Counted from the first letter of the stretch, positions 3,931 to 25,065 are shown. The stretch: 25,274 nucleotides of DNA from Kofleriaceae bacterium (GCA_016763395.1 JAESTW010000877.1:1-25274), one strand, 5' to 3'. The notes: a model not told the origin generated them from the sequence alone. Numbers and translations: made by a program.

Positions 3931-4698
3931 ATGCGCAACTTAACTAGCCTATCTCGGAGCAGCTTAGCTGCTATTTTCGCTGTCTTTTTCGCTCTTAGCT
4001 TCGCTCAAGTGGCGAGTGCTCAGCCGGGTGAAGAACCTGGTGGTGGCCCGGACACAACAGCACCAGATGCAACCCCTGAAGAGCCGTTAGGTGATCCGAC
4101 CTCTCCCGAAGACCCTGCAACTGACCCGGGTGAAGTGCCCGCCGCTTCTCCTGAACCAACAACTGTCGGCCCAGAAATTCCCGTTAATCTTCGATTGCGC
4201 CGATTGGAGCAACGCGTACAAGCACTAAAAGAGCGCGCATGGCGAGCCAAAGCACGGGTCGGAATGCTCAAAGAAGCAGTGCTTGGTGGTGGTGTTGGCG
4301 CGCGAGCAAACATCAAACACATCAACAAGATGGGCAACAGCTATCGCCTAATCAAGCTGGTCTACGCTCTCGACGGTGCTCAGGTATTCGCCCGTAGTGA
4401 TGCATCTGGCGCACTTCACAAAGAATCTGAGTTCGACGTACTGACGGGTCCCATTTCACCCGGTAGCCATACCATCAGTGTATTGGCACTTTACCGAGGC
4501 CACGGCTACGGCGTTTTTAAGTACCTCAAGAAGTACAAGTTCACGGTTCGCTCAAGCCATACTTTCACTGCTAGTGAAGGTAAAGGAACCAGCATCAAAG
4601 TTGTCGCGTTTGAACGTGGCGGCGTGACAACTCCTCTGGACAAGCGTCCGGCTTTTGACTTCAAGGTCAATGTCATCGACAGCGGTAAGAGTAAATAA
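3931..4698 (+). CDS. Conserved myxobacterial secreted hypothetical protein, first gene of the Glt-like operon
   Basis: SD GAGGA at 3919-3923. Sec signal peptide ending ASA-Q, acidic Pro-rich linker, coiled-coil LRRLEQRVQALKERAWRAKAR, then a beta-rich domain (YALDGAQVF, YRGHGYGVFKYL, FERGG). Confidence 0.85.
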   Translation: MRNLTSLSRSSLAAIFAVFFALSFAQVASAQPGEEPGGGPDTTAPDATPEEPLGDPTSPEDPATDPGEVPAASPEPTTVGPEIPVNLRLRRLEQRVQALKERAWRAKARVGMLKEAVLGGGVGARANIKHINKMGNSYRLIKLVYALDGAQVFARSDASGALHKESEFDVLTGPISPGSHTISVLALYRGHGYGVFKYLKKYKFTVRSSHTFTASEGKGTSIKVVAFERGGVTTPLDKRPAFDFKVNVIDSGKSK

Positions 4699-4700
4699 CG

Positions 4701-7097
4701 GTGTTTGGTCGCCTACTACTCGCGGCAGCACTTTGCGGCACAACTTTCTCCTTGGCGGAGCGCAATGCGCACGCCGAGTCTCTTGAGAAAATTGCCAAGA
4801 AGCTGATTGGCATTGACGCGGAGATCGGAAACCTGAGTTCCGGTATCCGACGTCCGAAACAGATCGGAAAAGTGGAAACACAAGATCTGGCATCACGCCG
4901 GCTTATCGACGCCCAAGTCAACTTTGGTGTCGGTAACTACGATGATGCTGCGGTTATGCTCTACGATTTTGTCGAGAAGCATCCAACCCATCGTTCATGG
5001 GATGAGGCGCTTTACTACCTGGCCGAATCACTTTTTCAAAAAGGTGACTACGTCGCATCGCGCTCGTACTTCATTCGTCTGGCGAGTGAGCGGGGCAATC
5101 GCAGCAAGTTTTACCAGCAAGCGTTGGAGCGACTGATTGAGCTCACACTGAAGCTCGATGACTCCAAAGATGTCGACAAGTGGCTAACTGCGCTCGACGG
5201 CGTTCCGCAGCAACAGTTGCGCGACTCCGTGCCTTACGTGCGCGGCAAGTACGCTCACTTTCGAGAGCAGTTTGACGAGTCACTCAAGCACTTTGGCATG
5301 GTGCCGAAGACCTCTGAGTACTATTCGCAAGCGCAGTACTTCATGGGCGTCAACTACGTCGCCAAAGGAGAGCTTGGCCTCGCCCTCGACCTATTCAAGA
5401 AACTCGTATTGGTTGGTGGCGAGAGCAAAGAAGCACTTCGTGTTGCCGAGCTTAGCCACATGGTTCTCGGACGTCTCTACTACGAGCGAGATCAACCTTC
5501 GAAAGCAGTCGATGAGTACCTGCGAATTTCTCGGCGCTCTGACCTCTTTGACGAAGCACTATTCGAAGTCACTTGGGTTTACGTTAAAAACAAAGAGTTT
5601 GATAAGGCGCTTCGAGCTTTAGAGCTTCTCGCACTGGCGGACCCAAATTCCCAGCGCATGCCGGACGTTCGTATCCTCGAGGGCAATCTTCGTATTCGCA
5701 AGGCACAGCGAATTGCTATCGATGGCAAAGGCAATAGCAAAGAAGAATACGACCGAGCGATCGAAGTCTTTGACGAAACTCGCAACAACTTTCGCGAGTC
5801 TCACGAAGAGCTCAAAGAAATTATTGCAGAACATGGCGACGCTTCCACATTCTTGCAGCAAATCACTGGCCGAAGCTCGGACACCTTCGATGTTACGTCA
5901 ACCATTCCCGAAGTTGCGGCGGCTTGGCTACGGGAGCAGCCCGAAGTCGCGCGAGTTGTGGATATCGAGACCAACCTCGGACAGATCGAGGCAGAGATCG
6001 CTGAAGCGGAAGCAACGATTGTTCGCCTAGAAGCCGCGATTGACACTCCTTCACGAGTCAACATCTTCCCGAGTTTGGCGCAAAAGCGTATTCGCAGCAC
6101 TGAGATCTTGGATGAAACCGTCAAGCTTCGTGTTGATCTAGCTACTCAAGCGCGGAACCTCGCGGACAAGTACGCTAGTGGTACTCAAAGTGGCCAGCTC
6201 GACAATCTTCGGGCTCAGGTCTTCCAAATTCAAAAGGAAATCAGCGCACTTCCCGACGGTGACTCTAGTGAAGGCGAGAAAATCACCAAGGCGCGGAATC
6301 GCTACACGAAGCTGAGTGAGCGGGCGGCGGAAGTTTCAACGATTATCGATGTAACCGAAGCTCAACTAGTCGCATTGGAAAAATACGTAATCGATCAGGG
6401 CTCTGCGCTCAAGGTCGACGAAATTGAGACATTCAACAACGATCTGAAAACGCTTCGGGCTGTTGTCGATGAGTTGCGTGGTGAACTAAAAAGCATTCGC
6501 AGCGACACCGTCTTGGCCAAAGATCGAGCGGGCACTGGAGACGAGGCTGCATCGAAGCGCAACGCGTTGCGGGCAGATTTGCAGCGCGCACTAGACGCTG
6601 AGCACGGCGCGATGATGAGTACCAGTTCTGCGATGAGCAGTAGTGATCGCGGCAAAATGCAGCAGATTGGTCGTTTGACGACACAGGCCAAGAACGCAGC
6701 CTCAAAACTCAGTCGAGTGAAGGGGACCATCGATAGTATTGTCGATGAGGCTTTGGGCGAAGTTCGTGATGCGCTCTCGGAAGAGAAGGCACATTTGGGC
6801 GCATATCGTCGAGAGTTTTTGAATTACGAACGCGAGTCTCATGAGATTGGCGGCGAAATTCTGGTGCTCAGCTTCCAAAACGTCTCTGCGAAGTTCTACG
6901 ATATTTTAGTACGCTCCGACGTTGGCATCGTCGATGTGGCTTGGTCTCTAAAAGAGGCCGCAGAAACATCTTTGAAACGACTCACTCTCGATCAGGCACG
7001 CGAACGGCGTACTTTGGACTCTGACTTTGCGGACGTAATCCGTGAAATCCGCGAAACCAGAGCGCAAGAGCTCTTCGATCAGGCTGCAGGCAAGTAA
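4701..7097 (+). CDS. Secreted TPR/coiled-coil protein, GltC/NfsC-like
   Basis: 798 aa with GTG start 2 nt after the upstream stop. Signal peptide ends AHA-E. TPR-like helices (ALYYLAESLFQKGDY, AQYFMGVNY, LSHMVLGRLYY, ALFEVTWVY) precede a long coiled-coil C-half. Sits directly upstream of the GltD-like gene. Confidence 0.75.
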   Translation: MFGRLLLAAALCGTTFSLAERNAHAESLEKIAKKLIGIDAEIGNLSSGIRRPKQIGKVETQDLASRRLIDAQVNFGVGNYDDAAVMLYDFVEKHPTHRSWDEALYYLAESLFQKGDYVASRSYFIRLASERGNRSKFYQQALERLIELTLKLDDSKDVDKWLTALDGVPQQQLRDSVPYVRGKYAHFREQFDESLKHFGMVPKTSEYYSQAQYFMGVNYVAKGELGLALDLFKKLVLVGGESKEALRVAELSHMVLGRLYYERDQPSKAVDEYLRISRRSDLFDEALFEVTWVYVKNKEFDKALRALELLALADPNSQRMPDVRILEGNLRIRKAQRIAIDGKGNSKEEYDRAIEVFDETRNNFRESHEELKEIIAEHGDASTFLQQITGRSSDTFDVTSTIPEVAAAWLREQPEVARVVDIETNLGQIEAEIAEAEATIVRLEAAIDTPSRVNIFPSLAQKRIRSTEILDETVKLRVDLATQARNLADKYASGTQSGQLDNLRAQVFQIQKEISALPDGDSSEGEKITKARNRYTKLSERAAEVSTIIDVTEAQLVALEKYVIDQGSALKVDEIETFNNDLKTLRAVVDELRGELKSIRSDTVLAKDRAGTGDEAASKRNALRADLQRALDAEHGAMMSTSSAMSSSDRGKMQQIGRLTTQAKNAASKLSRVKGTIDSIVDEALGEVRDALSEEKAHLGAYRREFLNYERESHEIGGEILVLSFQNVSAKFYDILVRSDVGIVDVAWSLKEAAETSLKRLTLDQARERRTLDSDFADVIREIRETRAQELFDQAAGK

Positions 7098-10000
7098 TGA
7101 ACGCAATTGGCAAAACACTATCTCGTGGCCTGTTTTTCGGGGCTTTGCTCTCGATTGGCTTTGGTGGATCGCAAGGCTTTGCGCAACCCGCTGCCGGACA
7201 ACCTGGCGGCCCAGTCGCTGGACAACCAGGAGGACCCGCCGCTGGACAGCCCGGTGGACCGGCTGCTGGACAACCAGTTGCGCCTCGCATGGGCCCCGGT
7301 TCCAACTTTGGACCGACAGTCCTAACTCCAGAAGAACTGGAGATTCTTGCTGAGGTCGAGCAAGATCTCATCCGATACGAGAAGGCAGCGAATCTACATC
7401 ACAAGCGTGTCCGTATCATATTGGCATCTGAGTACAAAGATCGCAAAGGTCAGCTGGAATCTCGCTACGCCGAGAAAATCGGGAACGCAGAAAAGCAGGA
7501 ACTGGCACGCCGGCTCAGTGCAATCGTACTACTAGAAAAATTCGTACAAGATTATCCAAACCACCAGAAGTTTACGCCCGACGCAATGTTTCGTTTGGCC
7601 GATCTGTATTTGGAGCAAGCGGAGTACGACTTCAACGTCAGCTTCGACGAAGACCTCGATTTTGGCGATGACGATGATGACGACACGTTCCTGGCCTCGG
7701 CAGACTATTCCAAGTCCATCGGAATGTGGGACAAGATTGTCCGTAACTTCCCCAAATATCGGCAGAAGGCCAATACTCTCTATTTACTGGCGTACTATCT
7801 CAAGCAGACTGAGCAAGAGCGTCCGGCATTGCAAATCTTTCGCGGGCTCGTTTGTTCCAACAAGTACGATGCTCTCGCAGAACCAGAACCAGCACCGGAC
7901 ATGGCATTGGCTCGCGCCGCGCTGGGAACGGCGATTCCTGACGACAAGAGCGGGATTTACGAGGGTTGCATTGCACTCTCGGACAACAAAGAGCTTCTGC
8001 AGGATGCTTGGGTTCGCGGCATTGGCGACATCCACTTTCTGACTCCCGGTGAACTTGGCGAAGCCATTGGCGCATACGAAAGAGTAGCGGGCGACGAGCA
8101 GAGCAAGTTCTACGACGAAGCGCTCTACAAACTCGCTTGGTCGTACTACCGCAATGATGATTTCTTGCTGAGTATCGAGGCTTTTGACAAGTCTGTTGTG
8201 TACTCGGACAAGCAAGTAGCAGAAGGCAAAGAAGAACTGGAGCTTCGTGACGAAGCAATTCAGTACATTGCCATTTCGTTTACCGATCCATGGAGCGTGG
8301 ACGAAGATCCAGACCCATCTCGCAGTTGGGATCGGGCGATGGACTTCTACAAAGATCGCTTTGACGAGCCTCATGTCCGGGATGTCTTTATCCAGCTCGG
8401 CGATACCTTCTCAGTGCTCGAGTCGTACTCGCAGGCGTCCGATGCATGGCGTCTAGCGCTCACCAAGTGGCCGCTACACCCGGAGAATCCAGAGATTCAC
8501 CAAAACATTGTAAATGCCTTTGTTGAGCTTGGTGACACCGATTTAGCGAATGAGGAGGCGGGTCGATTGGCGGCTCGTTACGCTCCGGGCACCGAATGGT
8601 ACACCGCCAACGAAACCAATCGCATCGCTATGGAGAACCAGCGGCGCATTGGCGAGCGCATGCTCAAAGCGGCGGCAGAGAATACTCACAAGTCAGCACA
8701 GGCGGCTCGTCAAGATTGGTTGGCGGACTCAACTGAAGAGAACAAGGCGATTTACATCGACCTCTATCTCAAGGCTGGCGCACTCTACGAACGTTTCTTA
8801 AAAGAGAATCCAACGGCAGAGAGCTCATACGAGTTTACCTACCGCTTGGGCGAAGTTCTCTTCTTTGCTGAGCACTACCAAGAGGCCATCCCGCATTACG
8901 TTTGGGTTCGCGACCATCGCGACTTGAGCGAAACGCGCTTCGAGAAGGCAGCTCGCTCCGTGGTTCAGTCCTATCAAAAGGAGCTGGAGAAACAAATTGC
9001 GGACAACACGGTGGTCGAGCCTTCGATTCCGACGATTGATGAACTCTTGGCGATGCCAAAGCCTATCGCTGGCAAGCCTCTGCCGCAGGCCTATGTCGAT
9101 TTGCAAGACAGTCTGGACAAGTACCAGACCATGGTCAACGATCCAGAGACGGCACCCAACATGGGGTACGAGGCTGCTCTGATTTCATTTCGCCATCTTA
9201 ATCTGGCCGACGCAGAAAACCGTTTTCAAGCGACTCTCGACAGGTTTTGCGGAAGCGACCAATCGGTAAAGAGTAAAGACGCTCTCTTGGCAATCTACGA
9301 AGCTCTCGGCGATGACGAGAAGTTCAAAGCGACCAACGAGGCGTTTATCTCTTCCAAGTGCGGAAGTGACGATGATGTTGCGCTGGCGCAAGCACAAAAC
9401 CGCTCTAAAGAGTTTCGTGAAGCTGCTGCTCTCTTCAAAGAGCAGAAGTTTGCCGATGCGGCGATCGCGTTCTATGTCTTTTACAAGACTGCGCCGCCGG
9501 ACGATCCCAACCGTCCGATTGCTCTGTACAATGGAGCGATTGCCTACGACAAAAGCGGTAAGCCCAAGACAGCGGTCTATTTGCTCAAGGAGTTCACCGA
9601 GAATACCAATTCGGCATTCCGTGACAGCGAATACTTCTTACCCGCTCTCTATCTAACAGCGGTTTCGTACTACAAGGCATTCGATTACGACAATGCAGTA
9701 AAAGTCTATTTGGACGTCGTTAAGGCAGCCGCGGACAAGAGTCGCAAGCCACCAGCAGGCGAGCGAACGGCTCCTGAGATGCGTTTGGATGCGCTTTACA
9801 ATGCTGCGAATATCCGAGAACTGGACAGGGTCTACAAAGATCCACGTTCGGCACCCGGAACCGGAGCTGCTTCACTCTTCGAGCGTTATGCATCGCTGGA
9901 AACCGACGGTCGCAAGGCAGATCGAGCTCTCTTTGCAGTGGCTCGCGTTTGGAAAGGGGCCAAGAACCTCCGATTGCAAGAGCGTGCGTATGCGACTTGG

Positions 10001-10693
10001 CGCGGAAAGTACGGCAACCTGGCGATCAACTCGAACGACTATGTCTTTTCCTATTATGACATGGCCAAGCAGTACGAGAAGTCTGGCAATTCTCGGGCGA
10101 CAGCAAAAGCCAAGAAAGCGACGCTGAGCGCTTGGATCAAAGTGGGTAGTCCGAAGGATGCAATCGCTTCAGATTTGGCTGCGGAGTTTGCATTCCAAGA
10201 GGCGGACAAATACTACGACCGGACATTCACTCCCTTTAAAATCAAGCGTTCGCCCAAAACGGAGAAAGAGGCCAAGAAGGTCTTTGCCGATTTGATCCGA
10301 CTTGCGGACAATGCGCAGAAGAAGTTCACTGACATGAACCGCTTCGAAAGTGGACCCTGGTCTTTGGCATCTCTTGTCCGGGTCGGCGATATTCGCTTTT
10401 TCCAGGCATTGAAAATTGCGGAGATTCCGATTCCGAAGGAAATTATCCGACTCGATAACCTATATCCGTCCAAAGATATTCTCATTCAGTACGAGGATAC
10501 GATTGCCAGCTTGGTAAAGCCTCTGGAAGAGCAAGCCAAGATTCAGTGGGAAAAGGTTGTCAACGCAGGCAAGGCGCAACGGCTATCCAACGAGTGGACC
10601 CAACTGGCGCAAGAACGCCTACACGACTTTGTTTCTCAGGACGAATTTCCCGTGCTCCGTACCGAGCTTCGGGAGGGAACGGAGACACCCTAA
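7097..10693 (+). CDS. Large TPR protein, GltD/AgmU/NfsD-like
   Basis: 1198 aa; start overlaps the upstream stop (TAATG). Signal peptide plus many TPR motifs (PDAMFRLADLY, DEALYKLAWSYY, LRDEAIQYIA, IALYNGAIAY). The C-terminal W.LASLVRVGDI...NEWTQLAQERL resembles AgmU-family tails. Confidence 0.8.
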   Translation: MNAIGKTLSRGLFFGALLSIGFGGSQGFAQPAAGQPGGPVAGQPGGPAAGQPGGPAAGQPVAPRMGPGSNFGPTVLTPEELEILAEVEQDLIRYEKAANLHHKRVRIILASEYKDRKGQLESRYAEKIGNAEKQELARRLSAIVLLEKFVQDYPNHQKFTPDAMFRLADLYLEQAEYDFNVSFDEDLDFGDDDDDDTFLASADYSKSIGMWDKIVRNFPKYRQKANTLYLLAYYLKQTEQERPALQIFRGLVCSNKYDALAEPEPAPDMALARAALGTAIPDDKSGIYEGCIALSDNKELLQDAWVRGIGDIHFLTPGELGEAIGAYERVAGDEQSKFYDEALYKLAWSYYRNDDFLLSIEAFDKSVVYSDKQVAEGKEELELRDEAIQYIAISFTDPWSVDEDPDPSRSWDRAMDFYKDRFDEPHVRDVFIQLGDTFSVLESYSQASDAWRLALTKWPLHPENPEIHQNIVNAFVELGDTDLANEEAGRLAARYAPGTEWYTANETNRIAMENQRRIGERMLKAAAENTHKSAQAARQDWLADSTEENKAIYIDLYLKAGALYERFLKENPTAESSYEFTYRLGEVLFFAEHYQEAIPHYVWVRDHRDLSETRFEKAARSVVQSYQKELEKQIADNTVVEPSIPTIDELLAMPKPIAGKPLPQAYVDLQDSLDKYQTMVNDPETAPNMGYEAALISFRHLNLADAENRFQATLDRFCGSDQSVKSKDALLAIYEALGDDEKFKATNEAFISSKCGSDDDVALAQAQNRSKEFREAAALFKEQKFADAAIAFYVFYKTAPPDDPNRPIALYNGAIAYDKSGKPKTAVYLLKEFTENTNSAFRDSEYFLPALYLTAVSYYKAFDYDNAVKVYLDVVKAAADKSRKPPAGERTAPEMRLDALYNAANIRELDRVYKDPRSAPGTGAASLFERYASLETDGRKADRALFAVARVWKGAKNLRLQERAYATWRGKYGNLAINSNDYVFSYYDMAKQYEKSGNSRATAKAKKATLSAWIKVGSPKDAIASDLAAEFAFQEADKYYDRTFTPFKIKRSPKTEKEAKKVFADLIRLADNAQKKFTDMNRFESGPWSLASLVRVGDIRFFQALKIAEIPIPKEIIRLDNLYPSKDILIQYEDTIASLVKPLEEQAKIQWEKVVNAGKAQRLSNEWTQLAQERLHDFVSQDEFPVLRTELREGTETP
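7187..7276 (+). repeat. In-frame 24-bp (8-aa) repeat P(A/V)AGQPGG, about 3.75 copies
   Basis: Units at 7187-7210, 7211-7234, 7235-7258 and partial 7259-7276. Copies differ mostly at synonymous positions. Confidence 0.9.
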
Positions 10694-10695
10694 CG

Positions 10696-11967
10696 ATGAG
10701 TGAATTAGATCCCAGCGAGACATCGCGCGTATTCCTAAGGGTAGAAGGACCATCATCACGCAGAAGTGGCAAGTTTGCAGGGCTCAAGTCGGGCGCTCTG
10801 TGGGCTCTGCTTCTAGCTAGCGCGGGCTCACTTGCAGCATGCGGCGGTGGTGACAAGAAAAAGAAGTCAACTCCCGCTTCGAGCGGAACGGTGAGTGATG
10901 GAACGCCTATGGGACCGGTTGTGGATCCGGCGAATATCGACCCCATTGACGGAATTCCGACGGCAGATCCCAACGATAGGCCACCTGAGCAAACGGAGCC
11001 AAGTGCTCCGAGCGATCCTGACGATCCCGATGTGCCACCTGAGATCAAGCCGCCTGGCTTGGACATCAGCCCAGCGGAAAAGCAGGCGCGAGTGCAATCT
11101 CTGCTGCAAAACGCCACCGCGGCGATCAAAAACAATGCAGATCCAAGCCGAACTATCAGTGAGGCAAAGGCGGCATTGCAGATCGACGAGACCAGTATTG
11201 ACGCGATGGTTCTCTTGGCCCACGGCAATGTAGTCAAGGGCTTCTACGATATGGCCGAAGATGTGCTCATGAAGGCGTTCGAGCGCGGTGGCAAGAGCAA
11301 CAAGAAAGCGTTTTTCTTGCTTGGACTTGTGTATGACAAGACTGAGCGCGAGGACAAGGCTCCTATCGCCTATCAAAACGCGCTCACTCTCGACCCCAAT
11401 TACAAGAGCGCACTGGTCAACCTGGGTGTTAGTCACCTTCGCACCAAGCGCTACCAAGATGCGGTTGTAATCTACGAGCGACTTACATCGAGTCTTGGGC
11501 TCGACCGAGCCGCAGTTTGGACCAACTTAGGCTCCGCGTACCGAGGGCACTCTACTGATTTTGTCTCGGACATTACGCGTCGCAATCAGATGGTACTCAA
11601 GGCAGAGGCTGCGTACAAACACGCAATCAGCAAGGATAAGAACTATCCTAATGCCTACTACAATATGGGCTTGCTCTACTTAGACGCTGATCCATTCCCC
11701 ACCCGGTCTGGTGGAGAACTCGACAGGTTGGTGCGGCTGAAGAACGCCAAAACCTATCTTGACGAGTACCGCCGGCTTCCTAAGGCCGACCAAAAGCTTG
11801 TCGATCAGACAGCGGCAGTGGCACAAAAACTTATCGATCGGGAGCTCAAGCTTCGCAAGAAGCAAGCAGATCGAGAAGCCAGGCGACGTGCTCTAGAAGA
11901 GAAGAAACGCAAACGTGAGGCAGAGGGTGGCGGCGATGATTTTGATAGCGACGAGGGATTTGAGTAA
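10696..11967 (+). CDS. TPR lipoprotein, GltE/AglT/NfsE-like
   Basis: Start moved from 10546 to ATG 10696 (SD GGAGAC at 10681-10686, 2 nt after the upstream stop). Lipobox LAAC-GGG, Pro/Asp linker, TPRs (AFFLLGLVY, ALVNLGVSHL, VWTNLGSAY, AYYNMGLLY) and a charged C-terminal helix. Confidence 0.8.
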   Translation: MSELDPSETSRVFLRVEGPSSRRSGKFAGLKSGALWALLLASAGSLAACGGGDKKKKSTPASSGTVSDGTPMGPVVDPANIDPIDGIPTADPNDRPPEQTEPSAPSDPDDPDVPPEIKPPGLDISPAEKQARVQSLLQNATAAIKNNADPSRTISEAKAALQIDETSIDAMVLLAHGNVVKGFYDMAEDVLMKAFERGGKSNKKAFFLLGLVYDKTEREDKAPIAYQNALTLDPNYKSALVNLGVSHLRTKRYQDAVVIYERLTSSLGLDRAAVWTNLGSAYRGHSTDFVSDITRRNQMVLKAEAAYKHAISKDKNYPNAYYNMGLLYLDADPFPTRSGGELDRLVRLKNAKTYLDEYRRLPKADQKLVDQTAAVAQKLIDRELKLRKKQADREARRRALEEKKRKREAEGGGDDFDSDEGFE

Positions 11968-12315
11968 ATGAAGTCTAAACGATCAAATAGTCTAAGTCGC
12001 ATAGTCGGGTATGTCGCCATGACGGCGGCGCTGCTGATGGGTACTTCTCTAGTCTCTTCAGATATCGCTCATGCTGATAAATGTTCTGATAGGCAGGACG
12101 AGGCGGACAACGGTGGCAAGAACTACAAAACAGTTATTGGCCCGGACGGACGCAAGGTTTTTGTGATTCAAAAGGCATTTGTGGTTTGCGGGACCGTGCC
12201 CAGACCCAATGTGATCTACGTCTTGCAGGCAACTGCAATTAACTACGAGTGGGAAAACCTCAAGCAGGATTTCATGCCACTAATTCGCAAATCAGTAAAG
12301 AAATGGCCGTTCTAG
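11968..12315 (+). CDS. Small secreted protein, GltF/CglF/NfsF-like
   Basis: 115 aa with signal peptide ending AHA-D. The C-terminal RPNVIYVL...QDFMPLIRKSVKKWPF resembles GltF-like small proteins. Lies between the GltE-like and GltG-like genes. Confidence 0.75.
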   Translation: MKSKRSNSLSRIVGYVAMTAALLMGTSLVSSDIAHADKCSDRQDEADNGGKNYKTVIGPDGRKVFVIQKAFVVCGTVPRPNVIYVLQATAINYEWENLKQDFMPLIRKSVKKWPF

Positions 12316-13736: not shown

Positions 13737-13777
13737 CGCTCAGGTACAAATCACAGAGTCTGTGAAAACAGCTACAA

Positions 13778-13808: not shown

Positions 13809-13851
13809 GTCTGTGGGCTGACTGGTTTGCAATACGGGTAAACATCAAAAC

Positions 13852-13860: not shown

Positions 13861-13865
13861 ATCCC

Positions 13866-15284: not shown

Positions 15285-15296
15285 GCTCTCAGTAAA

Positions 15297-15312
15297 AGCA
15301 AGTGCTAGGCCA
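15297..15312 (-). promoter_or_regulatory. sigma54 (-24/-12) promoter for the PilZ-like gene
   Basis: Minus strand reads TGGCCTAGCACTTGCT, i.e. TGGC-N7-TTGCT with exact GG-N10-GC spacing, 13 nt upstream of ATG 15284. Confidence 0.7.
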
Positions 15313-15521
15313 AGACACTAGTTTAAGCTAAGTGATTGAAATTAGTAGAAATGGCTGGTTCGAATTCGGAAAAACGCACAGTCAGTGTTGCCATCTTGAC
15401 ACGATATTGCGTGGTTTGTGAACGGAATGTCGCGAATCAAATGGCAGGTGATCTGCGCCACATGAGCCCAGTGGCTTCTTATAGCTTGGGCAATTGTGCT
15501 AGCGTTATGTGTATGAGCCCG

Positions 15522-16250: not shown

Positions 16251-16266
16251 CTACAGTCCGAATCAG

Positions 16267-16788: not shown

Positions 16789-16827
16789 GGTATGTCCAAT
16801 CGGCAAAATTGAGTGTGTATGCACCCA

Positions 16828-16843
16828 AGCAATACGGTGGCCT
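16828..16843 (-). promoter_or_regulatory. Possible sigma54-like promoter for the helical lipoprotein gene
   Basis: Minus strand reads AGGCCACCGTATTGCT with correct GG-N10-GC spacing and TTGCT, but has A instead of T before GG. Confidence 0.35.
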
Positions 16844-16946
16844 GGGCATAGACTTGATAGTTCCCAGGTTTTTTCTTGTGATTCTCTTGAACGACCGCCA
16901 GAGAGTTGACGACTATGATGGGCGAGATACCCTTGCTTGGCTCAAC

Positions 16947-17543
16947 ATGATCGTTTATTTCCGCCTACTTATTGTACTTCTCCTCATCCCACTTGCGTCC
17001 GCGTGTGGAGATCCCCCCGCGAGTGTGTATCCAGATCAGCAGGCGTATCAGGAGGACACAACCATAGGTGTAGGTGATGTTTTTGACGTTCGAGTCTTTC
17101 AACACAAAGAGATGAGCGCGACATATTCCACCAGTGCAGAGGGCAGTATTTCCTTCCCCTTAATAGGCAAGGTCATGGTCTCCGGCAAAACCCCAGCGGC
17201 CGTAGAAGAAGAGATTCAATCCCGACTTGCCGATGGCTACTTGGTGAACCCGCAAGTGTCGGTGTTTGTCAAAGAGTACAAGAGTAAGAAATTGTCTATA
17301 TTCGGACAAGTCAGGAAGCCCGGCACCTTGGCCTACACGGAGGGCATGACAATTATCGAGGCGATTTCGCAAGCGGGTGGCTTTACCGGAATGGCGCGCA
17401 AGAATGCAGTCACTGTGACTCGTGAGCTTGATGGCAAAAAGTCGAAGTATACGATTCCCGTAGACAAAATCGGACGCGGCTCAGCTGGGAACTTTAACTT
17501 GCGTCCGGGCGATGTAGTCTTTGTGCCCGAGCGACTTTTTTGA
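16947..17543 (+). CDS. wza: Short OPX/Wza-family polysaccharide export lipoprotein (Poly_export plus one SLBB domain, no C-terminal membrane helix)
   Basis: Likely start ATG 16947, giving 198 aa. Lipobox ASAC; IGVGDVFDVRVF, GSISFPLIG, YLVNPQVSVFV, IFGQVRKPG, EAISQAGGF; ends at LRPGDVVFVPERLF. Confidence 0.9.
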   Translation: MIVYFRLLIVLLLIPLASACGDPPASVYPDQQAYQEDTTIGVGDVFDVRVFQHKEMSATYSTSAEGSISFPLIGKVMVSGKTPAAVEEEIQSRLADGYLVNPQVSVFVKEYKSKKLSIFGQVRKPGTLAYTEGMTIIEAISQAGGFTGMARKNAVTVTRELDGKKSKYTIPVDKIGRGSAGNFNLRPGDVVFVPERLF

Positions 17544-19870
17544 TCCGTGGTGCTACGCGCGATACGATAGCGGCTCCTCTAGCGGCGCTTAGCCTGCTCT
17601 TTGCGGTGTTTGCCGTCGGTTCCGCGCATCGTTGGGCTGTGGTAATTGGCGCTGGGCTTTCGCTAGTCAGCACAGTGCCATATTGGGGGGCACGCCGGAA
17701 GCTCTCGGGTTGGTCTCCTCTACTGGTTTTTCTGGGTGTGTGTGCTGGGCTAACTGCGTTGCAAGTCTTGCCCTTGCCCGCAGCGGTGGTCGGACTACTT
17801 TCTCCTGCGAAGTATGAACTGGTCATGAGCAATGCCAAGGTCATGCAAGAGTCGGCGTCCGCCTTTTTTCCGCTGAGTCTCGATCCACCGGCCACCTTGC
17901 GTGAACTCGTTAAGCTCATCAGTTACTTTGCGTTCGCCTACACTTGTTTGCGACTGCGGGCAAAGAAGGGCTCTGGGAATAAATCGCAGATGGCGGGTGC
18001 TGTTGTTGTGCTCGGATCTCTGGTGGCTCTTACCGCAATCGGACATCGCCTACTCTCGATAGACACTCTCTTTGGCCTCTACGAGCCGCAATACATCAAA
18101 GCACCGACCTTTGTGGCGCCTTTGCTCAACTCCAATCACTTTGCCGGACTGATGGCTCTGTGCGCTCCTGCTGCGCTCGGGTTAGCGGTTTTCCACCGGG
18201 GTAAAAAACGCGCCTTCTTTATCGCCTCGATGCTTCTTTGTAGCGGTGTATGTGTTCTCAGTGAATCTCGCGGGGGTGTTTTGGCGCTCGGCTTTGGGCT
18301 CTTGCTCGCCGCCGGACTTTGCTTCGCTGGCCGCAATCGCAAGAGCGACTCAAGTGGCCGAGAAATTCCTAGGAAAATCCCCGTACCGCAGATGATAGTC
18401 GGCTTGTGCGTCTTTGCCGTTTTGGGACTAGCTACCGGCAATGGTGTTTTAGAGGAGCTGAGCAAGACCAGCGCAGAGGAGATTACCGGCCAATCGGGGA
18501 AGGTTGATTTATGGCGAAGTGCAAAGCCGCTAGTGGCGCGTTACCCCGTGTTCGGCATTGGACGAGGCGCATTTGAGCAGGCAGTATCGCAGGTCCGGTC
18601 ATCCTCGCCACAGTTCAGCTACGCCTCGCTTGAAAATGAGTATCTGCAAGCGATTGTGGATTGGGGCCTGCTCGGTGCTCTCTTGGCATCACTGGCGCTA
18701 CTGATGCTGGCGACGCTGGTGTTTCCAAAGTGGAGAGTGAGTGCCATTGAAGCGGGTGCAGTGTCCGGTATTGTCTCCATAGCACTGCAAAACACTGTCG
18801 ATTTTGGGCTCTCCTTGCCAGGCATTGCCATGCCAACGCTCGCTCTCACCGCGCTGGTAACTGGCGCGAGTTTGTCCGTGCGCAAGAAGGGCAGTGTGAA
18901 GAGAAAGTACTTTCATGCGAGTACAGCCGTTGTAGCAGCCGGGCTACTGGTGCTTCTCGCACTGCCGGGAAATCGGCCGGCGCGCGAGGAGACATGCAAG
19001 GCTCCTTGTTCTGTTGCAAGTGCAAGTGAAATTTGGCACCGGCATCCTGCGGACTACGCAGCGGCTGGCCGGACGGCGATCGCCTTGTACGATGCCGGTG
19101 ATCAGCGAGCCATCCAAGTGCTGAACCGAGCTCTCATCGCCAATCCGAGACAGTGGGGGCTGCACGTACTCGCCGCAAGATGGCTCGGCGCTTCGTCGGC
19201 TAACTCACAGGCTGCGATTGAGTATTCATCCGCCCTGCAAGATGCTCCTCTCGGACAAGTTGGCGGCCTAGTGAAAGAAATCGTCAGCGTATCTGCATCG
19301 CCCGAGATGGCGGCGAAGGCGTTGCCTCGGGATGGCACACGCATGCACTACATCGCCCGTGCCCTCAGGGGACTGGGGCAAATGGAAGTCCGTTTGGCGT
19401 ACGCGCACGTGGTCATGGCGAACGCAAAAGAGGACAAGGTTGCGCTTGGGCTAGTCGCCACAATCGCTACCCAAAGCAAAGGCTTTGCCTTGGCTCAGCG
19501 CGCCGCCAGACGAATCCACCAACTTTGGCCAAGTGCGGAGTCCATTCACCGCTTGGCGGATGTTGAGCTCGCATCCGGTAACACCGTGAAATCGCGGGAA
19601 ATTTTGGATACCGCGCTTACGGATACAAGGCTCACTGGTGCCGACCGCTCTCGGCTTCTGCAAATGTTATCTAAGTTATTGATAGCAGGCGGAAAATTTG
19701 AAGAGGCACGCAAACCACTGGCTCAGGCCTTGGCGATTCCGAGTGCTGGAAATGAAGAAAAAATACGTATTCACAGGCAGTTAGCGAAGATCGAAGCGGG
19801 ACTGGGCAATCGAAATCAGGCAGCCCTAGAGCGCAGGATTGCAGACGAGCTCGCGGCAAAGCGTCGATAA
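17540..19870 (+). CDS. O-antigen ligase/Wzy_C-family polytopic membrane protein with a C-terminal TPR-like region
   Basis: TTG start overlaps the wza TGA. About 11-12 hydrophobic segments, with LLNSNHFAGLM, SESRGG, PVFGIGRGAF and ENEYLQAIVDWGLLG motifs. Helical tail of about 270 aa. Confidence 0.8.
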   Translation: MIRGATRDTIAAPLAALSLLFAVFAVGSAHRWAVVIGAGLSLVSTVPYWGARRKLSGWSPLLVFLGVCAGLTALQVLPLPAAVVGLLSPAKYELVMSNAKVMQESASAFFPLSLDPPATLRELVKLISYFAFAYTCLRLRAKKGSGNKSQMAGAVVVLGSLVALTAIGHRLLSIDTLFGLYEPQYIKAPTFVAPLLNSNHFAGLMALCAPAALGLAVFHRGKKRAFFIASMLLCSGVCVLSESRGGVLALGFGLLLAAGLCFAGRNRKSDSSGREIPRKIPVPQMIVGLCVFAVLGLATGNGVLEELSKTSAEEITGQSGKVDLWRSAKPLVARYPVFGIGRGAFEQAVSQVRSSSPQFSYASLENEYLQAIVDWGLLGALLASLALLMLATLVFPKWRVSAIEAGAVSGIVSIALQNTVDFGLSLPGIAMPTLALTALVTGASLSVRKKGSVKRKYFHASTAVVAAGLLVLLALPGNRPAREETCKAPCSVASASEIWHRHPADYAAAGRTAIALYDAGDQRAIQVLNRALIANPRQWGLHVLAARWLGASSANSQAAIEYSSALQDAPLGQVGGLVKEIVSVSASPEMAAKALPRDGTRMHYIARALRGLGQMEVRLAYAHVVMANAKEDKVALGLVATIATQSKGFALAQRAARRIHQLWPSAESIHRLADVELASGNTVKSREILDTALTDTRLTGADRSRLLQMLSKLLIAGGKFEEARKPLAQALAIPSAGNEEKIRIHRQLAKIEAGLGNRNQAALERRIADELAAKRR

Positions 19871-19973
19871 GCGAGATCTATCAACTGGAATGTGTCCGCA
19901 AAGGCACTTTTGAGCGAATCTCCGGGCGATTTCGTGAACACGAATCGATTATCCAACAACTCAGAGAGTACCC

Positions 19974-20963
19974 GTGAAAAAGGCATTGATAACCGGCATT
20001 ACTGGCCAAGACGGCTCCTATTTGGCAGAACTGTTGCTCGACAAGGGCTACGAAGTCCATGGCATCATCAGGCGATCCAGTAGCTTCAACACCGACCGAA
20101 TCGAGCACATTTACCAAGACCCACATGAAGGTGGCCGTCTGAAGTTGCACTATGGCGATCTAAATGATGCCAGTTCACTCAACCGCATCTTGCGTTTGGT
20201 CGAGCCAGAAGAAGTGTACAACTTGGGCGCGCAGAGTCATGTCCGGGTTTCTTTTGACACACCCGAGTACACGGCCGAGGTAACAGGTCTGGGAACGCTC
20301 CGACTCTTAGAGGCGCTGCGGGAAACTGGTATGAAGCCCAGGTTTTACCAAGCTTCATCCTCAGAATTATTCGGATCGACACCGGCGCCGCAAAACGAAG
20401 AGACAGTCTTTGCGCCGCGCAGCCCCTATGCGATTGCTAAGCTTTTTTCGTATCACACTGTGCTCAACTATCGCGAGGCCTACGACATGTACGCTTGCAA
20501 CGGGATTCTCTTTAACCACGAGTCGCCTCGTCGGGGGGAGACCTTCGTAACGCGAAAGATCACCCGCGCTGCCTCGCGAATTCGCATGGGCTTGCAAGAT
20601 AAGCTCTTTCTCGGAAACCTAGAAGCCCAGCGCGATTGGGGCTTTGCCGGGGACTACGTCGAAGCGATGTGGATGATGCTTCAACAGGACGAAGCCGACG
20701 ATTTTGTTATCGCCACCGGTGAAATGCACTCGGTACAAGAGTTTTTGGAACTCGCATTTGAGAGTCTCGATTTAGATTGGAAGAAGTACGTTGAGATTGA
20801 TCCACGCTACTTCCGTCCGACAGAGGTTGATGAGCTTCGCGGCGACTTTAGCAAGGCACGAGAAAAACTCGGATGGAGCCCCAAGGTCGATTTTCGAGCG
20901 TTGACCGAGATGATGGTTCAGTCTGATCTCAAGATGGCCGAGAAGGAAGCAAAGTTAAAATGA
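19974..20963 (+). CDS. gmd: GDP-mannose 4,6-dehydratase
   Basis: [66 protein letters not shown]. Confidence 0.98.
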
Positions 20964-23146
20964 GAGACGATACCGACTTCGCGCGTGAGGATGAGGAAGA
21001 GGGTGGAATTGACATCCGGCATTTCGTCGACATTGTTCTGAAACGCAAGTGGCTGGTGATGGCCGCCATGGCCGTCGGTATTACTCTGGCTGTTCTTTAC
21101 ACCATGCGGCAAACACCGCTCTACAAGGCAACTGCGAGTGTTGAGGTAAATCCGCAGGCTCCACAGGTCTTCGGACGTGACCAGCAAGAAGTCGTGCAGC
21201 TAGGCTCGGGCAACTACTGGTCGAGTCAGGAATACTACAATACTCAACTCGAGATTCTGCGCAGTCGTAGTCTTGCTCGGATAACGGTTCTACAACATGA
21301 CTTGCACAATGACACTCGACTTGTCCCGGAGTCTCCCAAGAAGAAGCTGACAGAAGAGCAGCGGATTGAGAAGGCCTCGAGAAGTCTTCGAGCTGCGGTC
21401 ACGGTCACTCGCAAACGCGATAGCCGAATTATTCTTATTAGTATTACTCACCCCGATGCCGAGTTGGCTGCCGACTTGGCCAACATGCATGCAGATAGTT
21501 ACCAGCACAACAACGTGCAGGTGCAGAAGGGCGGAACGGGAATCGCGGCGAAATTCCTTGCTCGCGAAGTGGATACCGCAGAGAAATCTCTGACTGACTC
21601 TGAAGCAGCGCTAGTTGCCTTTCGCGATGAGAACGAGATTTTGCACATTACCTTGGACGGCAAGGCAATTGAGGACCGGCAGAATATGCTGTCCGCCAAT
21701 CTGACGCGCTACAACAGTGCGCTCTCCGATGCTCGAATCAAGCGTATTGAACTGGAGGGCTTGCGCAGGCAAGCGGCCCATGCTCTGAAGAAGGACGAGA
21801 TTTTAGAGTCGGCGATTTTTGGCCTGGTGGGCAATTCCACGGTCAATATTCTAAAAGAACAATATCTGCGAGAGCAACAGGTCTTTATCGATTTGAGAAC
21901 AACTCTGGGTCCTAAAAATCCGGGATTTATCGCTCAAAAGAAGAAGGTTGCTGACATCTACAAGGCGATTCAGCGAGAGGGCAGGTTGGCGCTAAGTGAA
22001 ATAGAAGAGCGTCTCGGGGCAGTTCGCAACAATGAGGGCCGCCTTGTTGCCGAACTCAAAGGCTTCAAGGAGGAAGCGAAACTGCTCGGCTCCAAGACCG
22101 GTGTCTACAACAAGCTGCTTCGGCAAAATAGCGAAGACAAAGAGAATTACGCCATGCTGAGAGATCGATTACGGACAAGTAATCTCTCTCTGAAAAACGA
22201 CGCTTCAAACAACATTCGCAGCCACGATGTCGCGCAAGTACCGGCAGCTCCCTTTAGTCCAAGAATGCCTGTGAACGTCGCGGTGGCGGCAGTGATGTCG
22301 CTTCTCTTGGGAATCGGGCTGGTATTCTTGCTTGAGTATCTCGACCGGACTGTAAAGACAGCAGAGGATGTGGTCTTGGCCGCCAAGACTCCGATGCTTG
22401 GCTTGATTCCTGTTTTGCATGACATCTCGGACAGCTCCAGCGACTTGCAGGAACGCGATCTCTACATATTTAACAAACCCAAACCGCGCGCGGCGGAGTG
22501 CTGTCGTTCGATTCGGACAAACTTGCTTTTCAGTGCTGCGGACCGCGATCTGACGATCCTGACTGTGTCGAGCCCGAACCCGCAAGAGGGCAAGACGACC
22601 TCGGTGATTTACCTGGGTACCACCATGGCGCAAAGTGGGCAGCGAGTTTTGTTAGTTGATACGGACATGCGCCGACCGAGACTGCACAAGTCGATGGGCG
22701 TCTCTCGGGGCAAAGGTATCTCCAACCTGATCGTTGGTGACTCGAGCTACGAAGATTGTATCAAGAGCACTGATGTTCCCAATCTCTTTGTATTGCCCTG
22801 TGGCCCCACTCCGCCGAATCCGGCAGAGCTCTTGCTGACCGACCGCTTCAAGTCCATCATCGAAGAGCTGCGCGGCAAATTTGACCGTGTGATTTTTGAT
22901 ACCCCGCCGCTGCAAGCAGTGACCGATGGCGTGGTTCTGGCCAAGCTCTCCGATGGCGCCATCATGGTGGTCAAGGCCGGACAGACCAATCGCGAGGCAC
23001 TGACAGCCAGCTCCAAGATGTGGAGAGACGTCGGTGTGCATCAGCTCGGTGTTATTCTCAATGATATCGATCTAAACGACAAGAAGTACGGATACAACTA
23101 CTACGCCTATGGCTATGGTGAGACAGCCGCGGAGGCAGCAGAATAA
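20960..23146 (+). CDS. wzc: Polysaccharide co-polymerase fused to a BY tyrosine kinase (Wzc/Ptk)
   Basis: ATGA overlap with gmd. Two TM helices flank a coiled-coil periplasmic region. Walker [13 protein letters not shown]' [15 protein letters not shown]; terminal Tyr cluster [10 protein letters not shown] (6 Tyr). Confidence 0.95.
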
Positions 23147-23148
23147 GC

Positions 23149-25065
23149 ATGAGTCCGGTACGCAAAGCACTCTTGGGGCCGAAGGCGGTTCGAGTTATTC
23201 AACTGGCAATCGACTTTGTCATGGCAATGCTGTGTGTGGTGCTGGCGTATTTGGTGCGATTTGACGCGGTGCTGCCCGAAGCCTTTGCTCAGCAAATGCT
23301 CATTATGGCGCCGGTAATTGCCGTAGCTCGGCTTGTCACCAATCGCATCGTTGGTGTCTATCGCGTCGTTTGGCGCTATGTTGGTGTCCGAGAGGCAATC
23401 CTCTTTGGGCGTGCTGTTCTCTCTCTGAGTGCGGTGTTGTTGGTTCTGCGATTTGTGGCTCCTCCAGGCTCGATCGCCAAGTTGCCTTTCAGCATTATCG
23501 TCATGGAGGCCACTTTCTTCTATCTTGGCCTTGCCGGCACGCGTCTCTTGCGCCGAATTCTCCACGAGTCGCAAAAGGCGACAAACGAGTCGAGCTCCGA
23601 TGCGACTGCGACCTTGCTCATCGGTGCCGGACAAAATGGTCTTGCCATCGCCAAAGAATCGCTCAAGCACCGAGCTGCTCTGGGCATCCACGCCGTTGGT
23701 TTTCTCGATGATGACCAGACCAAGCGAGGCATGGAAGTAAACGGTCTGAAGGTTTTAGGAACGCTTGAAGACATTCGGGATGTCATCAAAAACACCGATG
23801 CCAAGCAGGTGATCATCACCTCCAGCGCTGTGCCTTCAAAGGCTATCTTGGAGCTAATCGATATCTGTCGGCCCATGGGCGTTCCTGTCCGAACCGTTCC
23901 TGGCCTGCTCGAACTCTTGGACAAAGGCCTGAGCGCTCAATCCTTGCGAGATGTGCGAATCGAGGATTTGCTCAGCCGCGACCCGGTTCCGCCATCGATG
24001 TCTATGGATGACTTGCGCGGCATATTCTCAGGCAAACGCATTATGGTGACCGGGGCGGGCGGGTCCATCGGACGTGAACTCTGCCGTCAGCTCATGGCAC
24101 TGTCGCCGTCCAAGCTCTTCTTCTTAGAGCGAGATGAAAACAACCTATTTGAAGTGCACCGCGAAGTGGAAGGTACAGCCGGACAGGGCATTACCGTTCT
24201 CGCGGACATCCAAGACCGCAAAGAGCTGCACAAGATATTCAAAGAGCACAAACCGCAGATCGTGTTTCACGCTGCTGCCTATAAACACGTTCCTATGATG
24301 GAGCGCTTTCCCACCGAGTCTGCCAAGAACAACGTCTTTGGCACCAAGACCTTGGCCGAACTTTCGGACGAGCACGGTGTGGAATCCTTCCTGATGATCT
24401 CTACGGACAAAGCGGTCAACCCCAGCAGTGTCATGGGCGCGACCAAGCGCATGGCCGAAGTCATCATTCAAAACCTTGCTCCGCACAGTAAAACCAAGTT
24501 TTCTTGTGTCCGCTTTGGAAACGTCCTTGGCAGCCGCGGCAGTGTCATCCCCATCTTTCGCGAGCAAATTCGCAAAGGCGGCCCGGTCACTGTCACCCAC
24601 CCGGACGCAACTCGCTACTTCATGACCATCCCCGAAGCTGCCAACCTGGTCATCCAGGCCAGTACCCTCGGTGATTGTGGCGAAGTCTTCGTGCTCGACA
24701 TGGGCCAGCCAGTGAAGATCATGGACCTCGCTCGGCAGATGATCCACCTCAGCGGCGCCAACGAAGACCAGGTCAAAATCCAGATCATGGGATCTCGTCC
24801 GGGCGAAAAACTCTTCGAAGAACTCAAGACCAAAGACGAGGGCATCTCGGACACCAGCTTGCGCAAAGTCTTCCGCGTACAACCCGAAGAATTCAGCCAA
24901 AGTACCATCGACGAAACTCTCAAGCGCATGGATTTTGCCATCCGCGCCACCGACCACGACGGCATCCGCGCCGCCCTAGAAGACCTCGGCATCGGCTTCA
25001 CCAAGCAAGAGAGCCGCATGGTAACCGGCTCACATCCCAGCTACGAGCCTCCTGGCTCGGCCTAG
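23149..25065 (+). CDS. Membrane-bound nucleotide-sugar 4,6-dehydratase, CapD/WbpM/PglF family
   Basis: Four N-terminal TM helices and an LLIGAG/GFLDDD domain. SDR domain with TGAGGSIG, HAAAYKHVP, STDKAVNP, MGATK (Met-x3-Lys) and RFGNVLGSRGSV. Confidence 0.95.
   Translation: MSPVRKALLGPKAVRVIQLAIDFVMAMLCVVLAYLVRFDAVLPEAFAQQMLIMAPVIAVARLVTNRIVGVYRVVWRYVGVREAILFGRAVLSLSAVLLVLRFVAPPGSIAKLPFSIIVMEATFFYLGLAGTRLLRRILHESQKATNESSSDATATLLIGAGQNGLAIAKESLKHRAALGIHAVGFLDDDQTKRGMEVNGLKVLGTLEDIRDVIKNTDAKQVIITSSAVPSKAILELIDICRPMGVPVRTVPGLLELLDKGLSAQSLRDVRIEDLLSRDPVPPSMSMDDLRGIFSGKRIMVTGAGGSIGRELCRQLMALSPSKLFFLERDENNLFEVHREVEGTAGQGITVLADIQDRKELHKIFKEHKPQIVFHAAAYKHVPMMERFPTESAKNNVFGTKTLAELSDEHGVESFLMISTDKAVNPSSVMGATKRMAEVIIQNLAPHSKTKFSCVRFGNVLGSRGSVIPIFREQIRKGGPVTVTHPDATRYFMTIPEAANLVIQASTLGDCGEVFVLDMGQPVKIMDLARQMIHLSGANEDQVKIQIMGSRPGEKLFEELKTKDEGISDTSLRKVFRVQPEEFSQSTIDETLKRMDFAIRATDHDGIRAALEDLGIGFTKQESRMVTGSHPSYEPPGSA

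Follow-up and report, generated by a model that had tools for sequence, protein, structure and literature searches.

What is a Glt/Nfs-like machine doing beside an operon for polysaccharide export? The question is raised by contig JAESTW010000877.1 (GCA_016763395.1) of a metagenome-assembled genome (MAG; 83% complete, 918 contigs) from the Kofleriaceae (Myxococcota), which was analysed over its entire length of 25,274 bp and is referred to here as the window. Six co-directional Glt-like genes (3931–13736) and a polysaccharide gene set that begins with wza (16947–25065) lie on its plus strand. Among the gliding-gene paralogues of Myxococcus xanthus, G3 is nfs, and G4 (gltD homologue MXAN_1922) and G5 (MXAN_1327) are of unknown function (Luciano et al. 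2011, PMC3169522). The best explanation of the window is that it carries the Kofleriaceae version of an ancient Myxococcota array, in which a G4-type paralogue of the Agl–Glt/Nfs machines is linked to the outer-membrane (OM) exit module of a Wzx/Wzy pathway (a WzpB-type porin and a WzaB-type short outer-membrane polysaccharide export (OPX) protein). This analysis adds counts across the phylum, a tree of OPX domains, the match between phyletic patterns and the recognition of a derived version of the array in the Kofleriaceae.

The array across the Myxococcota

Orthologues of the GltD-like protein were sought in 40 relatives and 400 sampled genomes of the phylum, and those of p255, the secreted protein encoded at the head of the Glt-like set, in the same 400. 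Genes in 20-kb stretches were mapped by tblastn and by hidden Markov models (HMMs) built from the loci themselves. Counts refer to 111 species-representative Myxococcota loci in which ≥3 kb of sequence follows the GltG-like gene, 88 of which lie outside the family of the window; genomes (G), contigs (C), loci (L) and families (f) are given by our own codes where needed. A recurrent array was found on a single strand: p255–GltC–GltD–GltE–GltF–(TolQ–TolR–TolR)–GltG–p200–porin–OPX. Of the 111 loci, 84 had an OPX gene on the same strand ≤6 kb downstream (76/88 outside the window's family), with linkage in 22 of 31 families, and 85 had a same-strand porin gene ≤5 kb downstream (84/88). The canonical porin–OPX pair was present in 76 of the 88 loci outside the family, and a TolQRR motor was embedded between the GltF- and GltG-like genes in 39/111 loci (39/88 outside the family, ~44%), its genes confirmed by the Pfam families MotA_ExbB and ExbD. 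The GltC-like position is kept in all surveyed loci and the GltE-like position is conserved among them; in most of them the GltF-like gene stands after the GltE-like one and before the GltG-like one. From the GltG-like gene through p200 and the porin to the OPX, the array runs as successive stop-to-stop open reading frames (ORFs) tens to hundreds of bases apart. The proteins of ~450 aa encoded before the OPX correspond to WzpB by position and size, and one of them gave a weak match to the Pfam family BBP2_2 (beta-barrel porin).

Because genomes of this group (4.6–10 Mb) carry only 1–3 OPX genes each, an OPX ≤6 kb downstream on the same strand is expected at ~0.1–0.2% of random sites, and the observed adjacency is far above chance. 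In each of five near-complete genomes one of the OPX genes is the G4-adjacent one, and the complete genome G212 has no OPX besides it. The preliminary description of this locus had proposed a synteny survey and had left open that the neighbourhood might be peculiar to this genome; on the counts above it is decisively not. The adjacency persists down to 25–30% GltD-like identity and through local inversions and insertions, and is ancestral and conserved across the Myxococcota.

A maximum-likelihood tree of 50 OPX domains agrees with this history. A branch with SH-aLRT 93 separated all 44 G4-adjacent OPX proteins, from ~20 families, and one long-branch outlier from the other OPX paralogues, among them a second OPX of the MAG (contig C791). 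The Wza of the window nests inside the Kofleriaceae G4-adjacent group, and grouping within the branch broadly tracks the family codes. The tree indicates that the adjacency in the window was inherited rather than produced by chance juxtaposition.

The phyletic patterns point the same way. Of 401 Myxococcota genomes, 301 gave an orthologue of p255, a marker of the G4-type cluster, usually as a single copy, and 301 were hit by the porin profile, with nearly identical family tallies; the GltD-like orthologue was found in 24/24 genomes of the window's family and, at E<=1e-40, in 125/401 of the phylum. Neither p255 nor the porin was found in f33 (11 genomes), f36 (8), f28 (2), f5 or f22, and in f10 the same three genomes are without both and a congener has both. 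The discordant genomes that could be checked were mostly fragmented assemblies or had the genes at contig ends. Because kin genomes are not independent, the match is supportive and not a formal test.

The same order can be read in M. xanthus. The beta-barrel partner of WzaB (MXAN_1915) is WzpB (MXAN_1916), wzaB lying 23 bp downstream of wzpB (Saidi et al. 2022, PMC9603273), and from the locus numbers of G4, wzpB and wzaB follows the order GltC(1923)–D–E–F–G(1919)–1918–1917–wzpB(1916)–wzaB(1915). The statement in the preliminary description that wzaB lies near an uncharacterised glt-like cluster thus proved accurate: the cluster is G4 (MXAN_1919–1923), two genes from wzpB/wzaB (MXAN_1916/1915). 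We found no paper in the open-access literature that ties G4 to wzaB/wzpB; the review of Agrebi et al. 2015 is outside this coverage and may mention it. In the searchable open literature MXAN_1917–1922 are named only in Luciano et al. 2011; the term ‘Glt’ is absent from Saidi et al. 2022 (PMC9603273), the G4–wzaB linkage is not mentioned in Wartel et al. 2013 (PMC3858216), and in the papers examined that contain both ‘WzaB’ and ‘Glt’, Glt appears solely as the gliding machine or as a control strain.

Further features of the array were observed. Between the GltG-like gene and the porin, most non-Kofleriaceae loci encode p200 (12294–12890 in L129, and homologues), a protein of ~200 aa with no family match that may be the counterpart of MXAN_1918 or MXAN_1917. 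In f29 (L213–L217; G128, G181 and G190) the array ends after the GltE/F-like genes, and in the three genomes for which both coordinates are available the same contig carries the porin ~20 kb downstream, on the other strand, which suggests an inversion that divided the array in two. In nearly all Kofleriaceae loci (obg at 2584–3633 in the window, and L043–L122) and in several distant families (f47, f29 and f56), p255 is directly preceded by obg. In M. xanthus, mglA (MXAN_1925) lies two genes past the GltC-like MXAN_1923; a GTPase gene beside the head of the array is common to the obg-linked loci and M. xanthus.

The window and its Kofleriaceae relatives

The window opens with gatB, rplU, rpmA and obg, followed by the Glt-like set (ORF listing with Pfam and NCBIfam; TPR, tetratricopeptide repeat):

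3931–4698, plus strand: p255, secreted protein at the array head (signal peptide, acidic Pro-rich disordered linker, ~37-residue helix and beta-sandwich domain)
4701–7097, plus strand: GltC-like TPR protein, 798 aa, with signal peptide (TPR matches in Pfam, weak GltC match)
7097–10693, plus strand: GltD-like large TPR protein, 1198 aa (TPR and YbgF-like repeats)
10696–11967, plus strand: GltE-like TPR protein, 423–473 aa (ORF opens at 10546; likely start ATG 10696, just past the GltD-like stop)
11968–12315, plus strand: GltF-like small secreted protein (p115), 115 aa (signal peptide seen in the sequence)
12303–13736, plus strand: GltG-like TonB-type transducer, 477–495 aa (ORF opens at 12249; likely start ATG 12303)

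The cluster had been called Glt/Nfs-like, and this holds: homology to GltC, GltE and GltG is weak and significant, an AgmX/PglI tail exceeds its cut-off, the order is that of G4 and the sizes are close to those of G4. The GltC-like protein matched NCBIfam GltC (NF033756) with E 4e-22 and 78.7 bits, far from the equivalog cut-off of 450; the GltE-like protein, which also has TPR matches in Pfam, matched GltE (NF033758) with E 2e-7 and 30.1 bits (cut-off 225 bits); and the GltG-like protein matched GltG (NF033760) with E 2e-18 and 66.1 bits (cut-off 650 bits). In an alignment of 11 orthologues the GltG-like protein has a conserved cytoplasmic N-terminal domain, one transmembrane helix, a Pro/Gly-rich linker and a TonB_C or AgmX/PglI tail, the last identified by Pfam TonB_C (E 5e-6) and by NCBIfam NF033768 (56 bits, over the 40-bit cut-off). 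The GltD-like protein matched no NCBIfam GltD model; as its paralogues match none either, the library appears to be without one. No Pfam or NCBIfam family matched the GltF-like protein or p255. An AlphaFold2 model of p255 reached pLDDT >90 over residues ~85–250, and a fold search returned only generic beta-sandwich matches (transthyretin-like and Bacteroides ‘cell adhesion’ proteins; TM 0.2–0.45).

We also considered whether the cluster could be the gliding machine itself and rejected this, as the equivalog cut-offs are missed widely and no counterparts of gltA/B/H/I/J/K were found among the window ORFs with Pfam and NCBIfam, GltJ being a match to the GltG-like protein in the tail domain only. 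General Pfam and NCBIfam scans, which include no Nfs-specific profile, recognised no additional OM barrel gene in the window. Elsewhere the MAG holds, all on short contigs, at least three further GltD-like genes (C733, C95 and C532), two further GltG-like genes (C432 and C151) and two array-motor-like TolQ genes; the C151 protein is nearer to M. xanthus GltG than is that of the window (133.7 vs 66 bits). The TolQ ORFs, on C373 and C711, gave the top scores against the profile of the in-array TolQ and are candidates only, which cannot be assigned to the machine of the window. In four relatives (G024:C12, G022:C38, G012:C37 and G027:C9) the GltD-like open frame spans ~2000–2300 aa, suggesting a GltC–GltD fusion or a missing intervening stop.

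The polysaccharide set follows in the order OPX, Wzy_C–TPR fusion, Gmd, Wzc and PglF-like dehydratase:

16947–17543, plus strand: Wza, class-3 (short, D1D2) OPX lipoprotein of WzaB type (ORF opens at 16809; likely start ATG 16947)
17540–19870, plus strand: membrane protein of the Wzy_C (O-antigen ligase/polymerase) family with C-terminal TPR, 776 aa; its start overlaps the Wza stop
19974–20963, plus strand: Gmd, GDP-mannose 4,6-dehydratase (TIGR01472, 530 bits, over the 415-bit cut-off)
20960–23146, plus strand: Wzc, PCP-2a protein with fused BY-kinase (Pfam Wzz, GNVR and AAA_31)
23149–25065, plus strand: PglF/CapD-type membrane-anchored UDP-sugar 4,6-dehydratase (Pfam Polysacc_synt_2, E 4e-116, and CoA_binding_3)

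A Wza–Wzc polysaccharide operon, as first described, is indeed present, with OPX and SLBB domains in Wza, Wzc passing the TIGR01007 cut-off (184.8 vs 108 bits), and Gmd and PglF-like genes. From ATG 16947, Wza is a 198-aa precursor with the lipobox LASAC and the C-terminus VFVPERLF; it contains Pfam Poly_export and a single SLBB domain and no Wza_C. Its best PDB match is chain A of 9N9A (E 3.4e-46), sWzaB of M. xanthus, which is the class-3 OPX of the biosurfactant-polysaccharide (BPS) pathway (Nat Commun 2026, PMC12819527). As the conserved part and the lipobox start at ATG 16947, the 244-aa form of the annotation probably has 46 residues too many; the 16809–16946 part of the long ORF runs into the 5′ end of m185, a minus-strand gene with its start codon at 16824. 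The second protein matched Pfam Wzy_C (E 4e-17) and TPR_12. This fusion (TPR region of ~270 aa) is conserved beside the OPX in the Kofleriaceae at 28–48% identity, and fills the position held elsewhere by neighbours of the porin–OPX pair. The presence of both Gmd and a PglF-type 4,6-dehydratase makes it reasonable to expect that the polymer probably contains 6-deoxy sugars. No flippase or glycosyltransferase was found within the contig. Because the window is the whole contig, the operon may run beyond 25274.

Between the two sets, from the GltG-like stop at 13736 to the likely Wza start, lie 3210 bp with four small ORFs, matching the ~3.2 kb of small genes first reported:

13866–14783, plus strand: p305, predicted lipoprotein (lipobox LSAC) with a Cys-rich DUF4215 repeat (Pfam DUF4215, NCBIfam myxo_disulf_rpt)
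14820–15284, minus strand: m154, candidate ORF, uncertain as a real gene
15336–16250, plus strand: p304, with a weak CarboxypepD_reg-like domain (Pfam, 24.8 bits, under the cut-off)
16267–16824, minus strand: m185, predicted lipoprotein (lipobox LIGC)

Of the four, m154 and m185 are minus-strand ORFs, and p305 and m185 are predicted lipoproteins. Same-genus genomes contain homologues of two: p304 in G005 (49% identity), and m185 downstream of the GltG-like gene (38–43% identity). No homologue of p305 was found in the other surveyed loci, its sole match being itself, and it stands outside the conserved array; m154 has neither a Pfam or NCBIfam match nor a homologue in the other loci.

The arrangement of the window does not appear to be an artefact of assembly. 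Short unitigs from four independent metagenome runs span the GltG-like/p305 and m185/Wza junctions, with no sign of a rearrangement joint; a chimera behind the adjacency was ruled out because the same arrangement recurs across many independent assemblies. The runs containing the sequence are of marine, subsurface and plastisphere origin, and all are DNA metagenomes, with no RNA run among them. A scan of 3500–20200 for sigma-70 promoters and terminators gave fewer sites than shuffled sequence and was uninformative.

The relatives of this genome show how far the array has changed in the family. All six G4 genes are intact in 24/24 Kofleriaceae genomes, with obg immediately upstream. None of 23 Kofleriaceae loci has the motor, p200 was seen directly after the GltG-like gene in none, and 1/23 has a same-strand porin ≤5 kb downstream. 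The distance to the OPX was taken from tblastn coordinates of the orthologous Wza and of G4 in 22 assessable genomes; the HMM pipeline had given 8/23 OPX-adjacent loci, an undercount due to the exclusion of stop-to-stop ORFs overlapping the end of the GltG-like gene. The OPX was found:

within 6 kb of G4: 11 of 22 genomes
15–28 kb away: 5 of 22 genomes
~39 kb away: 1 of 22 genomes
on another contig despite long flanks: 5 of 22 genomes

It is thus ≤40 kb from G4 in 17/22, inversions notwithstanding. In the same-genus genomes G001 and G004 the Wza–Wzy–Wzc(–PglF) operon is inverted; the distance of its Wza from the GltG-like gene is ~19 kb in the former and ~28 kb in the latter. In the family the OPX is usually followed by the Wzy_C–TPR fusion and Wzc. 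The window encodes no 18-stranded beta-barrel partner porin beside Wza. The porin is a single-copy gene in 6/6 sampled family genomes; that of G008 lies after Wzc on the opposite strand. The Kofleriaceae therefore carry a derived, partly dismantled version of the array, the most eroded one.

A candidate role for the G4-type machine

How such a machine might act on an export pathway is suggested by its better-known relatives. In the structural model of Agl–Glt (PMC11761067), GltC lies under OM porins, whose N-terminal segments it orders; GltF connects GltC both with GltD, to which GltE also binds, and with the TonB-like domain of GltG; the transmembrane helix and juxtamembrane domain of GltG bind the AglR5QS motor, and a long disordered linker crosses the peptidoglycan. 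Binding of AglR to GltG was also seen by two-hybrid assay (Luciano et al. 2011, PMC3169522), and Agl–Nfs moves the Exo spore-coat polymer on spores (Wartel et al. 2013, PMC3858216). The WzpB-type porin, followed by the OPX, is the only OM barrel encoded in the G4-type array. By analogy, the GltG-like protein would couple a TolQ–TolR–TolR proton motor, encoded elsewhere in this genome, to a periplasmic TPR scaffold of GltD/E/F-like proteins, and the GltC-like end of the scaffold would dock under the porin/OPX translocon as GltC does under the GltA/B/H porins. Force would pass from the motor through the GltG-like, GltD/E/F-like and GltC-like proteins to the porin/OPX, and the machine might gate, position or move the translocon or the polymer, as Agl–Nfs does with Exo. 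In the Kofleriaceae genome studied here, synthesis of the polymer would fall to the adjacent Wzy–TPR, Wzc, Gmd and PglF-like genes.

Functional coupling of the G4-type machine to polysaccharide export is a well-motivated hypothesis, for and against which we consider the genomic evidence evenly poised. Somewhat more tentative is the wider proposal that all across the Myxococcota the class-3 OPX/porin translocon has in this machine a dedicated partner driven by a proton motor, that export or deposition is mechanically assisted, and that the array is near the ancestral ‘capsule motor’ proposed as the source of Glt and Nfs. With one conserved array in most families, often with its own TolQRR motor, G4, previously without known function, gains a concrete candidate function that can be tested in a tractable model organism. 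The array also gives genomic support to a shared origin of surface motors and capsule-type export, and raises the question of whether secretion through short OPX/porin pairs is energised or spatially organised.

Several observations weigh against coupling. G4 and G5 insertion mutants have wild-type motility, and the only published G4 mutant, an insertion in MXAN_1922, shows wild-type gliding and twitching (Luciano et al. 2011, PMC3169522), whereas wzaB, wzpB and wzcB mutants of the BPS pathway spread poorly, those of wzaB and wzpB with a severe swarm-spreading defect (PMC12819527); under the conditions of the mutant assays BPS export therefore does not depend on G4, and the MXAN_1922 insertion is evidently not polar on wzpB/wzaB. 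In the window, no ORF matched MotA_ExbB or ExbD, and because two opposite-strand ORFs lie in the spacer the two sets are probably not one transcript; on both counts, the motor-coupled deposition or movement of a polymer put forward in the preliminary description stays conjectural. Searches of the MAG, 83% complete, with a single protein, a custom HMM and an alignment-derived profile found neither a WzpB-type porin nor p200, and the missing porin may reflect incompleteness only, as the contig ends 209 bp past the PglF-like gene. The linkage is loosened in several families as well as in the window: f14, f16, f27, f32, f39 and f48 have the porin and no OPX directly after it, and five Kofleriaceae genomes keep the OPX on a contig apart from G4. 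Synteny and phyletic patterns also reflect, in part, the shared descent of non-independent kin. The putative orthology of the Glt-like genes to MXAN_1919–1923 draws on gene order, protein size and the match of the linked OPX to WzaB, and not on direct alignment, and the link between G4 and any polysaccharide is itself drawn from genome comparison.

These points invite other readings. The two systems could be independent envelope systems that are neighbours by descent only, in a neutral or co-regulated neighbourhood, with G4 serving, for example, Tol–Pal-like maintenance or another cargo. The absence from the M. xanthus G4 mutant of the swarm defect of BPS mutants would then be expected, as would the decay of linkage in the Kofleriaceae and the six families just named and the split array of f29, and the TPR proteins do match YbgF/CpoB- and BamD-like repeats. 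We nevertheless regard this as rather unlikely: neutral synteny seldom persists across the classes of a phylum, and here the adjacency has survived down to 25–30% GltD-like identity, local inversions and insertions, the array is tightly spaced and co-directional, and p255 and porin match in presence and absence, including the separate absences within f10.

A more restricted possibility is that the modules once worked jointly and that the link has decayed in this genome, the OPX having been captured by a self-sufficient Wza–Wzy–Wzc operon and G4 acting alone or with other partners. The Kofleriaceae loci lend themselves to this, with no motor in any of 23, a same-strand porin ≤5 kb downstream in one and no p200 directly after the GltG-like gene, as do the opposite-strand genes in the spacer, one of them encoding a lipoprotein, and the inverted operon ~19–28 kb from the GltG-like gene in the same genus. 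It fits poorly with the conservation of all six G4 genes in 24/24 family genomes, a single-copy porin in 6/6 of those sampled and an OPX ≤40 kb away in 17/22, and we consider decay of the link improbable. That the array is instead a TonB-like import machine, in which the GltG-like protein and a TolQR motor power uptake through the barrel, seems highly improbable. The TonB_C domain and the ExbB/ExbD-type motor embedded in many loci are what such a machine would contain, but in M. xanthus the secretion of BPS depends on WzpB, the orthologue of the barrel, which also binds WzaB (PMC12819527), the porin is paired with an OPX in 76/88 loci outside the window's family, and no plug-domain signature of a TonB-dependent receptor was found.

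Comparison with known systems

The Agl–Glt gliding machine (GltA–K with AglRQS) shares with the window homologous GltC, D, E, F and G modules, and input from a TolQR-type motor through the GltG-like protein would be expected in both; the window locus is without counterparts of gltA/B/H/I/J/K or cglB, and a closer GltG-like paralogue is encoded elsewhere in the MAG. A nearer functional parallel may be Agl–Nfs with Exo (WzaS/WzpS), which likewise combines a Glt-paralogous TPR/TonB-like complex with a Wzx/Wzy polymer and a short OPX (Wartel et al. 2013, PMC3858216). Unlike the paired sets of the window, however, nfs and exo are not adjacent in M. xanthus, no counterpart of the OM components NfsA/B/C/H of the eight-gene nfsA–H operon was recognised in the window with Pfam or NCBIfam, and the function of Nfs has been demonstrated by experiment, whereas that of the window is proposed from its genes. 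The ‘core complex’ of Gammaproteobacteria and Geobacter, with aglRQS and gltC, D, E and G in one locus (Luciano et al. 2011), represents a minimal Glt-like set that the window shares; the window locus is without the motor, and the Myxococcota array adds p255, p200, porin and OPX.

On the export side, the BPS pathway (Islam et al. 2020; Nat Commun 2026, PMC12819527) has, like the window, a lipoprotein OPX of WzaB type whose C-terminal motif is hydrophobic and a PCP-2a Wzc with fused kinase, which is WzcB in M. xanthus. The BPS polymer of M. xanthus is based on N-acetylmannosaminuronic acid (ManNAcA), whereas the Gmd and PglF-like genes of the window point to a deoxysugar polymer, with a Wzy_C–TPR fusion as the predicted polymerase.

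The closest counterpart is G4 itself. In the window, obg stands upstream, the wzpB and p200-type genes expected before Wza are replaced by four unrelated small ORFs, and after Wza come genes for Wzy, Wzc and sugar-nucleotide enzymes; the remainder of the M. xanthus BPS pathway, by contrast, lies ~1 Mb off. The gene order is nevertheless the same and the sizes are similar, with 798, 1198, 423–473, 115 and 477–495 aa in the window against 809 (MXAN_1923), 1111 (MXAN_1922, TPR), 490 (MXAN_1921, TPR), 91 (MXAN_1920) and 447 aa (MXAN_1919) in G4 (Luciano et al. 2011, Table S3, PMC3169522). Both loci are without a motor gene and both have a WzaB-type class-3 OPX just downstream, and the assignment of the Glt-like set of the window, on gene content and order, to a G4-type cluster beside a WzaB-type OPX operon is well supported.

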